From positions 186,001-237,448 of the forward strand of contig JBEWZL010000213.1 in the NCBI GenBank assembly GCA_045837725.1: a DNA stretch of 51,448 nucleotides, in the 5' to 3' direction. Source of the DNA: Vermamoeba vermiformis. Lineage: Eukaryota. A program made the position numbers and the translations under genes. This document shows positions 2,537 to 5,441 of the stretch, piece by piece. The first letter of the stretch is position 1; every line of letters begins with the position of its first letter. Below the pieces are notes generated by a model. The model made no database searches and had not been told where the DNA came from. It saw nothing but the letters and a program-made list of their open reading frames with translations.

Positions 2537-5441
2537 ATGTTCAACGTGTTTGGTCGTAATTTAGCGAGATCGGGCCAGAAACTTTTGGGCCGCTCGAGCT
2601 CCACGAGGATGTGCACCAGAAAATCATCGACTCTTACAAAAACTTCCAATAGGTACATATTAATATTAACCTTTGTAATCCCGCCGACTAGGACGGTTCC
2701 AAATTTTTTGAAAATTTTACCTTAATTTTACTTTGCGAGTGTGTAAATTAACCCGCTCAGTCTTATAGTCTAAAATTCTGACACTAACTATTATACAATA
2801 ATATTAGTAAGAAATCGAACATCGTCTTGGCAAGCGTGGCTGGATTAGGTTTGGCCGGATTTGGTTTCTCGCTCTGGCATTCAGCAGATAAGCAACAAAA
2901 TAAGCATGAGAACTTAACTAAAGAAGAAGTCGCTTCTTTGCGTAAAAAACACTTCAGGTATTGTTTCTATTCCCGCGCACGTCAAATCCGCCTTTCACAA
3001 ATCATAGCTGAATTCACTAACTCTTTTAATCGAGTTTTATTTTCAATATAGCATAAATGAATATACTAGTCATAATACCGTAATTTTAATGATTATTTTT
3101 CGTTCAGCAAATGCTTCAAAACTTTCTACACCGATCCACTTATGATTATGGAGGGTCACATGCAATACGTTTACGACGAGAATGGTCGTCAATATTTAGA
3201 CGCTTATAACAACGTACAAACAGGTAATTGGAATCATATCGCGTTTTTTTGGATCGCGTCCCTTCGTTAATTAATTGGATTTTTTCTCATTTTTTATCGA
3301 ATTATGCCTTTATATTTCTTGCGGTACTATATTAATATATACTATGTTATTATAGTTGGCCACTCTCATCCTGAAGTTGTTCGAGCTGCAGCTGAACAGA
3401 TGTCCAAACTTAACGTTAACTCGCGTTATCTTCACCCGAACATCGTTCATTACGCGCAAAGACTCACCGCGAAATTTCCCGATAAATTGAGCGTCGTTTT
3501 CTTCGTTAACTCTGCTTCTGAAGCTAATGATTTGGCTCTACAATTGGTACGTCCAATTTCATTTTTTTATTGGCGTGATCCGAAAAGCTCTCGTGCGGAC
3601 CTTAATATTTCCTTATTAGGCAAAAGCCTATACTGGCCACAAAGACGTTATTGTCAACGACAATGCTTATCACGGCACTACCATTGCATGCGTCGAGATG
3701 TCACCGAACAAATGGTACTCCGCTCCTCACGGCAACGCACTTGGTCAATACACTCACGTCGTAAGTCACGTGTATTACCATATTTGGAAATACCATAGTC
3801 TAATCTGATGTTGTAAGGTCAATGTCCCCGACACATTCCGTGGCGCACACCGTGATTGGTCGACAGCTGGTCACTTGTACGCGAAGGAGATTGCTGACAC
3901 CATCGCTAAAGTGAAGCAACAAGGCCGCGAGGGAGTAGCTGCTTTCTTTGCTGAGTCTATTCAAGGTTGTGGTGGTCAGGTACGCGCCCGCAAATAGTCC
4001 ACTTTACATCATTTTTCACGCACAAAAAAGTTTTTTAATCAAAATTTGTTTTTTCCTTAGAACTGAAATTCTATTAATAATTTAACGACTAGACTCGTGC
4101 GATCTGATTCAGTGATGTTGTTTGTGCACGTACTCATGATCTCCATTTAGATCCCGTTACCGCCCAACTACCTCAAAGAAGTCTACGAGCACGTGAGACA
4201 GGCAGGCGGTGTTTGTGTGGCCGATGAAGTTCAAGTCGGCTTCGGTCGTTCCGGCGATCACTTTTGGGCCTTTGAAAGTCAAGGCGTCATTCCCGACATT
4301 GTCACTTTGGGCAAACGTATGTCACACATCCTCTTATTTTCATTTTGACCTCCGCCAAACCTCCGAAATATCGCAATCAATAAGATGCGGTCAAATTTTT
4401 GAGGCTTAAATTGAGTGACGAGGCGAGGCTTCGCAGAGGGATCTTGTCAGTAACGCAAGTAATGACCCGAACACGATGCTGCAGAGCGTATCGGGCACGA
4501 CCACACTGATCGGATGCATCGATTTCTTGCTTAGTAAGTGGTGACCCGAACACGATGTTGCAAAGCGTCTCGGGCACGACCACACTAACAAGAATGCACC
4601 GCTTCCCGTCCGATCAGCGAAGTTAAGCTTGTTCAGGCCTTCTTAGTACTGGGGTAGGAGACTACCTGGGAATCGGAGGTGTTGTGCTCTTATCTTTTTT
4701 TGCTTTTTGTTCTCGCCTCGTCCTACATTTAGTTCTATTATTTTGTTTTTGGTTGGATCAGATCCCGAGTTTTTTAAAAATTTTATTTTTTAATAACTTT
4801 TAACTTAGCTATTGGCAATGGCTTCCCTCTTGGTGCAGTCGTAACCACTCCCGAAATCGCCGCTTCATTTGATAAGAAGGAATACTTCAACACTTACGGA
4901 GGCAACCCTGTCGCGTGCGCTGTTGGTTTGGCTGTGTTGGATGTGCTCGAAAAAGAGAACTTGCAAGAGAACGCTAAACAAGTCGGTGATTATCTCAAGG
5001 AACAATTGAACGAGCTCAAGAAGAAGCGTCCGTTGATTGGTACGTTCTACGACACGACTTTTTGACACTTTGTGACACGTGTCATTGACGACCAAATTAT
5101 AACAGGTGATGTGCGCGGTCAAGGTCTATTTTTAGGTGTTGAATTAGTGCGCGACAAGGACTTGACACCCGCTGATGAAGAGACGCACGTGGTCGTTGAG
5201 GAGATGAAGAACAGAGGTGTTTTGACTGCCCTGAACGGTCCATACGAAAACGTGTTGCGCATCAAGCCACCACTCTGCTTCAACAAGTAAGACCTAATTA
5301 CATATACTATAACCTCATATGACTCTAACTATGACTCGCAGGGCTAATGCCGATCAATTCGTGAAGACTTTGGACGAAGTTCTTGAGTGGGTTGAACGAG
5401 AACAACCTCACACCAAACAAGTTCCTAAGCACAAGGGATAA
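2537..5441 (+). CDS. Class III PLP-dependent aminotransferase-fold enzyme (ETNPPL/PHYKPL/AGXT2-like) with probable mitochondrial presequence
   Basis: Spliced motifs [107 protein letters not shown]; Arg/Ser/Thr-rich N-terminus; stop TAA 5439-5441. Confidence 0.92.
4463..4586 (+). repeat. Direct duplication (period 79 nt) of the 5S upstream flank plus the first 15 nt of 5S
   Basis: tgacccgaacacgatgctgcagagcgtatcgggcacgaccacact (4463-4507) vs tgacccgaacacgatgttgcaaagcgtctcgggcacgaccacact (4542-4586), 3 mismatches in 45 nt. Confidence 0.95.
4572..4690 (+). rRNA. 5S rRNA gene (119 nt) inside intron 4317-4808 of the aminotransferase gene
   Basis: Conserved 5S tracts GCACCGCTTCCCGTCCGATC, GAAGTTAAGC, TTAGTACT and CTGGGAAT; helices close: GGGCACGAC/GTTGTGCTC, AACAAG/CTTGTT, GCCTTC/GGAGGT, GGTAG-GAGA-CTACC. 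Confidence 0.97.
4695..4701 (+). terminator. RNA polymerase III oligo-dT terminator of the 5S gene
   Basis: T7 run 4 nt after the 5S 3' end, followed by a second T5 run. Confidence 0.8.

Follow-up and report, generated by a model that had tools for sequence, protein, structure and literature searches.

Genes for 5S ribosomal RNA (rRNA) are, in the textbook arrangement, organized in tandem arrays or linked to the ribosomal DNA (rDNA), and dispersed families are also known, Schizosaccharomyces pombe and Neurospora being examples. Small RNAs of another kind, the intron-encoded small nucleolar RNAs (snoRNAs), are housed in introns and have neither a promoter nor a terminator of their own. Here we describe an intact 5S rRNA gene that lies, in the sense orientation, within a spliced intron of a protein-coding gene in a 51,448-base stretch of DNA from Vermamoeba vermiformis (contig JBEWZL010000213.1, positions 186,001 to 237,448 of the forward strand). 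We refer to this whole stretch as the window, and positions are those of the window unless another contig is named.

Several described systems share features with this arrangement. In Caenorhabditis elegans, intronic transfer RNA (tRNA) genes are genes of RNA polymerase III (Pol III) that are nested in introns of genes of RNA polymerase II (Pol II) (PMC4999229). In the mouse, intron 1 of Polr3e contains a short interspersed element (SINE) of the mammalian-wide interspersed repeat (MIR) type that is occupied by Pol III, lies in antisense and interferes with the host gene (PMC5358760). Scattered dicistronic tRNA-5S genes are found in Yarrowia lipolytica (PMC2566860). Finally, ectopic 5S rDNA in mouse cells draws loci to the nucleolus and represses linked Pol II genes, and one of the 5S transgene arrays concerned is located in the first intron of Rorb (PMC3261910). 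The locus in the window combines two known kinds of arrangement, namely a 5S family dispersed over the genome and the nesting of Pol III genes in introns.

Results

An intact 5S rRNA gene lies within a spliced protein-coding intron

The 5S gene, the intron that contains it and the host gene occupy the following positions.

4572-4690, + strand: full-length 5S rRNA gene, 119 nucleotides (nt), identified with Rfam family RF00001
4317-4808, + strand: intron 7 of 9, which houses the 5S gene; 492 nt, GT..AG borders, phase 1, placed by the spliced joint and by Pfam continuity
2537-5441, + strand: host gene, a class-III aminotransferase (ethanolamine-phosphate phospho-lyase-like) with 10 exons and a product of 517 amino acids
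2537-2652, 2808-2957, 3108-3223, 3356-3546 and 3620-3760, + strand: host exons 1 to 5 in the exon model
3818-3979, 4151-4316, 4809-5039, 5106-5286 and 5342-5441, + strand: host exons 6 to 10 in the exon model

An earlier prediction, made from the letters of the window (hereafter the original prediction), held that a complete 119-nt 5S sequence with all of its helices paired is nested in sense within a protein-coding intron, and the results bear this out in both respects. The sequence at 4572-4690 matched the whole of the RF00001 model (positions 1-120 of 120) in a cmscan search with 104.7 bits against a gathering score of 38 (E = 5.3e-22), and no consensus pair in the alignment was flagged as non-canonical. 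Folded alone, the 119 nt form a three-way junction, which is the three-armed shape of 5S rRNA, with a minimum free energy (MFE) of -41.6 kcal/mol. Both the gene and the intron that encloses it are on the + strand. We conclude that the sequence is a true 5S rRNA gene of this organism and that the copy is intact. The box A-like element (4621-4635) and the box C-like element (4651-4668) that had been pointed out earlier correspond to 5S nt 50-64 and 80-97. Equivalents of the internal control region are predicted by position at 5S nt 50-64, 67-72 and 80-97, which we take to be the positions of the control elements in Xenopus (box A, intermediate element and box C, respectively). The 5S gene is solitary in the window: no second 5S was found there with RF00001, even at E <= 1, ARAGORN found no tRNA gene in the window, and no other Rfam family came close to its cut-off in the window.

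Intron 7 splits a proline codon after its first base, at ...TLGK/PIGNG... (the slash marks the split; phase 1), which is the codon right after LGK, as had been predicted; the lysine that precedes the intron is presumably the one that binds pyridoxal phosphate in this family. Exon 7 matches model positions 208-259 of the Aminotran_3 profile and exon 8 carries on at 261-333, so the match is continuous across the intron, which means that the 492 nt interrupt a single domain. As had also been noticed earlier, intron 7 is much the longest in the gene, the lengths of the other eight introns being 155, 150, 132, 73, 57, 171, 66 and 55 nt (range 55-171 nt).

Reads from four runs were examined over positions 3950-5150: the RNA runs X21 and X23, the DNA run X1 and the contig run X4. 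X21 and X23 are raw RNA reads with the same species label as X1, and X1 is the best-matching DNA run and possibly the source of the window. X4 consists of contigs, whose RNA nature is a guess of the search tool. One X4 contig (587 nt, 0 mismatches, 142 nt on its shorter side) joins 4316 to 4809 and skips the 492 nt between GT..AG borders; the same contig also joins 5038 to 5105, and further X4 contigs join 3977 to 4149. These joints are all at GT..AG borders and thus argue that X4 contains spliced transcripts. The joint between 4316 and 4809 was seen in 1 RNA read of X23 and in 0 reads of X21, the latter having no coverage beside the joint. With the spliced form present in one X4 contig and one X23 read, RNA supports the junction implied by the original prediction, and intron 7 is spliced. 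The joint between 3977 and 4149 was represented by 8 reads in X21 and 5 reads in X23, which indicates weak expression of the host gene. The RNA runs covered the host exons to a depth of 0-6, and intron bins away from the 5S gene and its immediate flanks to a depth of 0 to 0.05.

RNA reads over the 5S sequence

In the RNA runs, the three bins that cover the 5S gene had a depth of 11-39 per strand direction. Across 4572-4690, no alternative letter reached 5% in X21 or X23, with the exception of a C to T difference at 4639 in 3 of 31 X23 reads. The body of the intronic copy is indistinguishable from the 5S of both runs; that is, the intronic 5S has the same sequence as the 5S RNA present in cells.

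Two further groups of RNA reads were observed. In one, reads leave the 5S sequence at 4653 (X21 and X23) or at 4678 (X23 only), with 4-5 reads at each of three loose ends, and continue into sequences that are unrelated to 5S and end in a tail common to the variants. These have the appearance of transcripts from 5S-like paralogues, or from elements that begin as 5S and have another 3' part. In the other, the 3' end of the 5S (4692) is followed by 18 A's and then by 5S sequence again, beginning at 4604 or 4608 (two joints, each with 2 X21 reads). Such reads could be oligoadenylated 5S or chimeras formed in the library.

A second 5S gene at a different locus

A search with an exact 30-nt word of the 5S sequence returned a single metagenome contig, L001 (3732 nt), with 0 matches in prokaryote genome contigs and 0 in viral contigs. 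The 5S of L001 is identical to that of the window over 119 of 119 positions (104.7 bits), and its flanks are different. Located 5' of this 5S, on the same strand, are exons that match AMP_N (model positions 2-42 and 41-100) and further exons that match Peptidase_M24 (2-36, which is below the cut-off, and 49-94 of 208). The last M24 exon is followed immediately by GTAAGT and takes the profile as far as position 94 of 208, which means that further exons have to follow. After GTAAGT come a tRNA gene with its T6 run, a 256-nt spacer, the 5S and a T8 run that is placed as the T7 run of the window is.

L001, 388-461, - strand: tRNA-Ile(AAT) gene, with a T6 run of its own, 256 nt upstream of the 5S

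Judged by this order of elements, the 5S and the tRNA-Ile most likely both lie, in sense, in an intron of an M24 peptidase gene. (Note that a candidate decayed 5S unit in the L001 spacer was rejected, since its alignment score was reached by 157 of 300 shuffles.) The original prediction had raised the possibility that other copies are intronic as well. For the L001 copy, which follows a 5' splice site in an interrupted domain, this is probable; a general rule does not follow from the two loci with readable flanks. Two intronic sense loci out of two are suggestive but, by a rough estimate, not significant. In so compact a genome, much of the DNA in which an insertion is harmless consists of introns.

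The 5S gene is a member of a high-copy family

In the DNA run X1, most of the flanking bins had a summed word depth of 265-365, with values of up to 563 in the four that lie at exon-intron boundaries, as against 219,202-325,459 for the three 5S bins. The ratio of 5S to flank depth, roughly 650-1100, is by the tool's own warning not a copy number, and we read it as "hundreds". At least six different flank sequences in X1 enter or leave the 5S, and there are 12 further loose ends whose run is unstated. The high depth and the many different flanks fit a large scattered family, as does the presence of a single 5S in the 51-kb window, and the 5S family probably consists of several hundred copies scattered over the genome. 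The proposal that the 5S gene is a dispersed one is thus supported, both by the high depth and the several distinct flanks in X1 and by the flanks of the L001 copy, which are different again.

Members of the family also have flanking features in common. Of the 8 upstream flanks seen, 7 have the motif AGTGGTGACCCGAACAC or a variant of it at a distance of about 30 nt from the 5S start, namely those of the full copy and the truncated copy in the window, two flank consensuses from RNA reads and those of three X1 contigs (much diverged in one contig). In the eighth, that of L001, the motif is at -72. Those copies with a visible 3' flank end in T-runs. Within intron 7, the following elements were identified around the 5S gene.

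4536-4571, + strand: upstream block common to other 5S copies and candidate upstream promoter element, defined by the motif and the flank consensuses
4695-4708, + strand: Pol III terminator-like T-runs, T7 at 4695-4701 and T5 at 4704-4708, read from the sequence
4457-4507, + strand: truncated duplicate, consisting of the upstream block and the first 15 nt of the 5S (direct-repeat family D1)
4417-4427, unstranded: left arm of an inverted repeat, 11 nt, perfect, from an exact-match search
4712-4722, unstranded: right arm of the same inverted repeat, 11 nt, perfect, from an exact-match search

The core of the upstream block is AGTGGTGACCCGAACAC itself, at 4537-4553, which corresponds to positions -35 to -19 relative to the 5S. 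The motif has three matches in the window, a number reached in 0 of 100 shuffles; one of the other two, with two mismatches, is at 4458-4474, inside the truncated duplicate. Downstream of the gene, the T7 run that had been described as a terminator is indeed present, and the T5 run adds to it. (Note that the third match to the motif, CGTGGTGACCCGAAAAC at 19621-19637 on the - strand, has two mismatches and no 5S after it. It may be the relic of a lost copy or a chance match.)

The truncated duplicate (4457-4507) and the corresponding part of the full unit (4536-4586) form a 51-nt direct repeat, with the duplicate 79 nt upstream and 90% identical; blastn aligned 45 nt of it at 93%. The copied 51-nt unit takes in sequence 5' of the transcription start, which argues against retro-copying of mature 5S RNA. 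(One X1 contig that joins 4484 to 4568 has single-copy depth, 266.8; the joint could stem from an allele that lacks the truncated unit, or the 51-nt repeat could have produced it in the mapping.) The 11-nt inverted repeat flanks both 5S units, and in the MFE structure predicted for the intron RNA its arms are paired with each other. This repeat could make the intron effectively shorter or be the mark of a mobile element, or chance may account for it. Neither the 11-nt repeat nor the non-5S parts of intron 7 recur in the window or in L001 (non-5S parts: matches of at least 12 nt), and no target-site duplications or flanking direct repeats of at least 12 nt were found in either. An apparent inverted 5S fragment at 4508-4535 was rejected, as its score was reached by 43 of 1000 shuffles.

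The host gene and its surroundings

The exon model of the host gene gives a single open frame with nine introns, all of them GT-AG. Its product has the same length as a database protein (P0001, 517 amino acids), with which it is colinear from residue 1 to residue 517 in a tblastn comparison and identical at 478 of 517 residues; P0001 is called an ethanolamine-phosphate phospho-lyase by one source. The cut-off for Pfam PF00202 (Aminotran_3) was reached by 4 of the 5 host exons tested, and the fifth scored 26.5 against 30.5. When the 5S-bearing intron is excluded, introns account for approximately one third of the gene.

The stop codon of the host gene is only about 120 nt from the end of a kinase-like gene on the opposite strand (5441-5561), a gap that fits a compact genome with little intergenic room. 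Elsewhere in the window, a 291-amino-acid open frame (21258-22133, + strand) resembles TrmO/TsaA tRNA methyltransferases, and its nearest Atlas clusters are 88-100% bacterial. This frame could be a gene of bacterial origin in a eukaryote, or the resemblance could reflect the sampling of the Atlas.

Discussion

We propose, with a probability of about 0.7, that the intronic 5S is transcribed autonomously by Pol III, that Pol II does no more than read through it, and that the intron is removed whole. One copy of the scattered family would have ended up in intron 7, in the sense orientation, and would function as a self-contained Pol III unit of about 180 nt, comprising the upstream block at -35 to -19, the internal control region and the two T-run terminators. 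Pol III would then transcribe this copy independently of the host gene, while Pol II passes through it and the spliceosome removes the full 492-nt intron, so that the host protein is not affected. Where a genome is compact and its intergenic spacers are short, introns are among the few harmless sites for 5S or tRNA genes, and this would explain why the second copy looks nested in the same way. We take the gene to be autonomous because its body is identical to that of other copies, its upstream block is at the usual distance and T-runs follow it; Pol III activity of the intronic copy and the role of the upstream block are both things that we infer from these features. A much broader idea is that intron housing is the normal organization of Pol III genes in this genome, with a large share of the several hundred 5S genes, and tRNA genes too, lying in sense in enlarged introns. 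We regard that idea as speculative and rather unlikely.

Several observations weigh against our proposal, most of them concerning the RNA. No RNA read in X21 or X23 could be assigned to the intronic copy, a result without power given that fewer than one such read is expected among hundreds of copies. All of the RNA reads that reach the upstream flank have G at 4555, A at 4565 and A at 4567 and are thus from other copies. The stretch right after the 5S reads TTATC in the window, where other copies have T at 4692; the A of the window at this position occurs in 0 of 33 X21 reads and 0 of 13 X23 reads, which have T or C instead. Moreover, most RNA reads fit only in part (93 of 116 in X21 and 50 of 57 in X23), with 83-86% of the aligned RNA material continuing into sequence that does not resemble the window. 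Reads of 151 nt, being longer than the 119-nt 5S, would also recover full-length mature 5S poorly. The RNA comes from another strain or allele, since the RNA runs differ from the window in every covering read at exon positions 3967, 4162, 4199 and 4201 (at 4162, G to T in all 9 reads of X21 and all 9 of X23); the X4 contigs agree with the window at 4162, 4199 and 4201, and one of the two that cover 3967 has the variant there. In addition, L001 stops 12 nt beyond its 5S, before any downstream exon, and no single X1 contig spans the 5S body in the window. Some of these points suit the idea that the intronic 5S is a silent copy, that is, a recent duplicate whose sequence is still perfect, which is not transcribed by Pol III in this setting (on account, for instance, of passing Pol II or of local chromatin) and which would be a pseudogene by position. 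The lack of an attributable RNA read, with the A at 4692 in 0 of 46 reads, is what a silent copy would give, the interruption of the first T-stretch after the gene sets it apart from the majority variant, and the neighbouring truncated duplicate testifies to local rearrangement. Nevertheless, the body matches L001 over 119 of 119 positions and is likewise identical to the consensus of the expressed 5S, an intact upstream block is found at its usual distance, strong T7 and T5 terminators follow, and the RNA data are powerless to detect one copy among hundreds. We consider a silent copy unlikely, although it deserves to be taken seriously.

The remaining alternatives concern how the 5S RNA would be made, whether the locus is real and where the unit came from. 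The original prediction left room both for a Pol III gene and for 5S processed from intron RNA. In the latter case the 5S would be trimmed from the spliced intron of a Pol II pre-mRNA, as intronic snoRNAs are. Trimming could draw on the position of the 5S, in sense inside a spliced intron (as the 5S and tRNA of L001 are in sense with their host), and on the 11-nt inverted repeat, which could pair around the 5S in intron RNA. Set against this, the copy retains Pol III-type T-runs and the upstream block of the family, neither of which an intron-processed RNA needs; the host is weakly expressed (exon depth 0-6, intron bins 0 to 0.05) and no read ties the 5S to intron RNA; and the tRNA-Ile of L001 has a T6 run of its own. 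The T-runs and the upstream block favour the Pol III alternative, and we find processing from the intron very hard to credit. An assembly artefact, in which a repeated 5S was misplaced or collapsed into intron 7, would account for the failure of X1 contigs to span the 5S (they break at 4553 and resume at 4703, with high-depth 60-mers between) and for an X1 joint that passes from 4484 to 4568 and skips 83 nt; X1 may also be the source of the window and hence not independent of it. Yet X1 contigs at 3950-4319, 4290-4506 and 4477-4553 connect exon 7 with the intron and with the truncated unit, and another (4703-4861) leads from just after the terminator into exon 8, so that both unique sides lead into a 5S, and L001, from an unrelated assembly, has the same kind of arrangement. 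An artefact is therefore highly improbable. A third idea, which bears on origin only and is compatible with an autonomous Pol III gene, is that the 5S arrived as cargo of a mobile element, be it a SINE or retro-copy derived from 5S or a small element with inverted repeats. The family has a great many members with varied flanks, the 11-nt inverted repeat brackets the units, and there are RNA reads in which 5S-like sequence switches at 4653 or 4678 to a common unrelated tail. By contrast, the 5S of this copy is complete and has neither an added body nor an A-tail, and direct repeats of at least 12 nt do not flank it; about 36 nt 5' of the start belong to the unit and would be missing from a retro-copy of mature 5S; and the bracketing repeat and the non-5S parts of the intron are absent from the rest of the window and from L001. 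We think such an origin improbable.

The significance of an autonomous Pol III gene in this position depends on how many other copies are housed likewise. If the copy in the window turns out to be an isolated stray, it is of minor interest, as a curiosity of genome annotation. If many copies are intronic, the family would offer a natural system for studying how Pol II and Pol III share one template and how a scattered family stays identical in sequence, as well as a test of whether 5S genes silence or tether their hosts, as the ectopic 5S rDNA of mouse cells does (PMC3261910). Should intron housing prove to be the normal organization, the supply of ribosomal 5S and host transcription would be physically interlocked through shared open chromatin, polymerase interference or nucleolar tethering. 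We found no report of intact 5S genes inside spliceosomal introns of protein-coding genes in full-text searches of the literature outside subscription journals and supplementary tables, and no genome-wide intron housing of 5S genes in the literature searched.

Of the known systems, the dispersed 5S families of protists and fungi resemble the present one in having many solo 5S genes with unrelated flanks, each presumably its own Pol III unit. None of the reports of such families that we saw mentions copies in spliceosomal introns of protein-coding genes, whereas here both of the loci with readable flanks are intronic or apparently so; in addition, copy number may be much higher here. Yarrowia lipolytica likewise has scattered 5S genes, and L001 has a tRNA gene just upstream of its 5S. 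The Yarrowia genes are dicistronic, whereas the tRNA-Ile of L001 is 256 nt away from the 5S, has its own T6 run and is unfused, and the copy in the window has no tRNA (PMC2566860). Intron-encoded snoRNAs are similar in that a small structured RNA lies in sense within a host intron, and they differ in that the 5S described here has T-run terminators and an upstream block found across its family. The mammalian 5S pseudogenes and transgenes also lie within or beside Pol II genes; the mouse elements are decayed pseudogenes or artificial arrays, whereas the copy in the window is perfect and natural (PMC3261910). With the intronic tRNA genes of C. elegans and the MIR element of Polr3e, the locus shares a Pol III unit within a Pol II unit and the possibility of interference between the polymerases. 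Those cases involve tRNA genes or a SINE, the MIR element being in antisense (PMC4999229, PMC5358760), whereas the nested unit in the window is a 5S rRNA gene in sense with its host.

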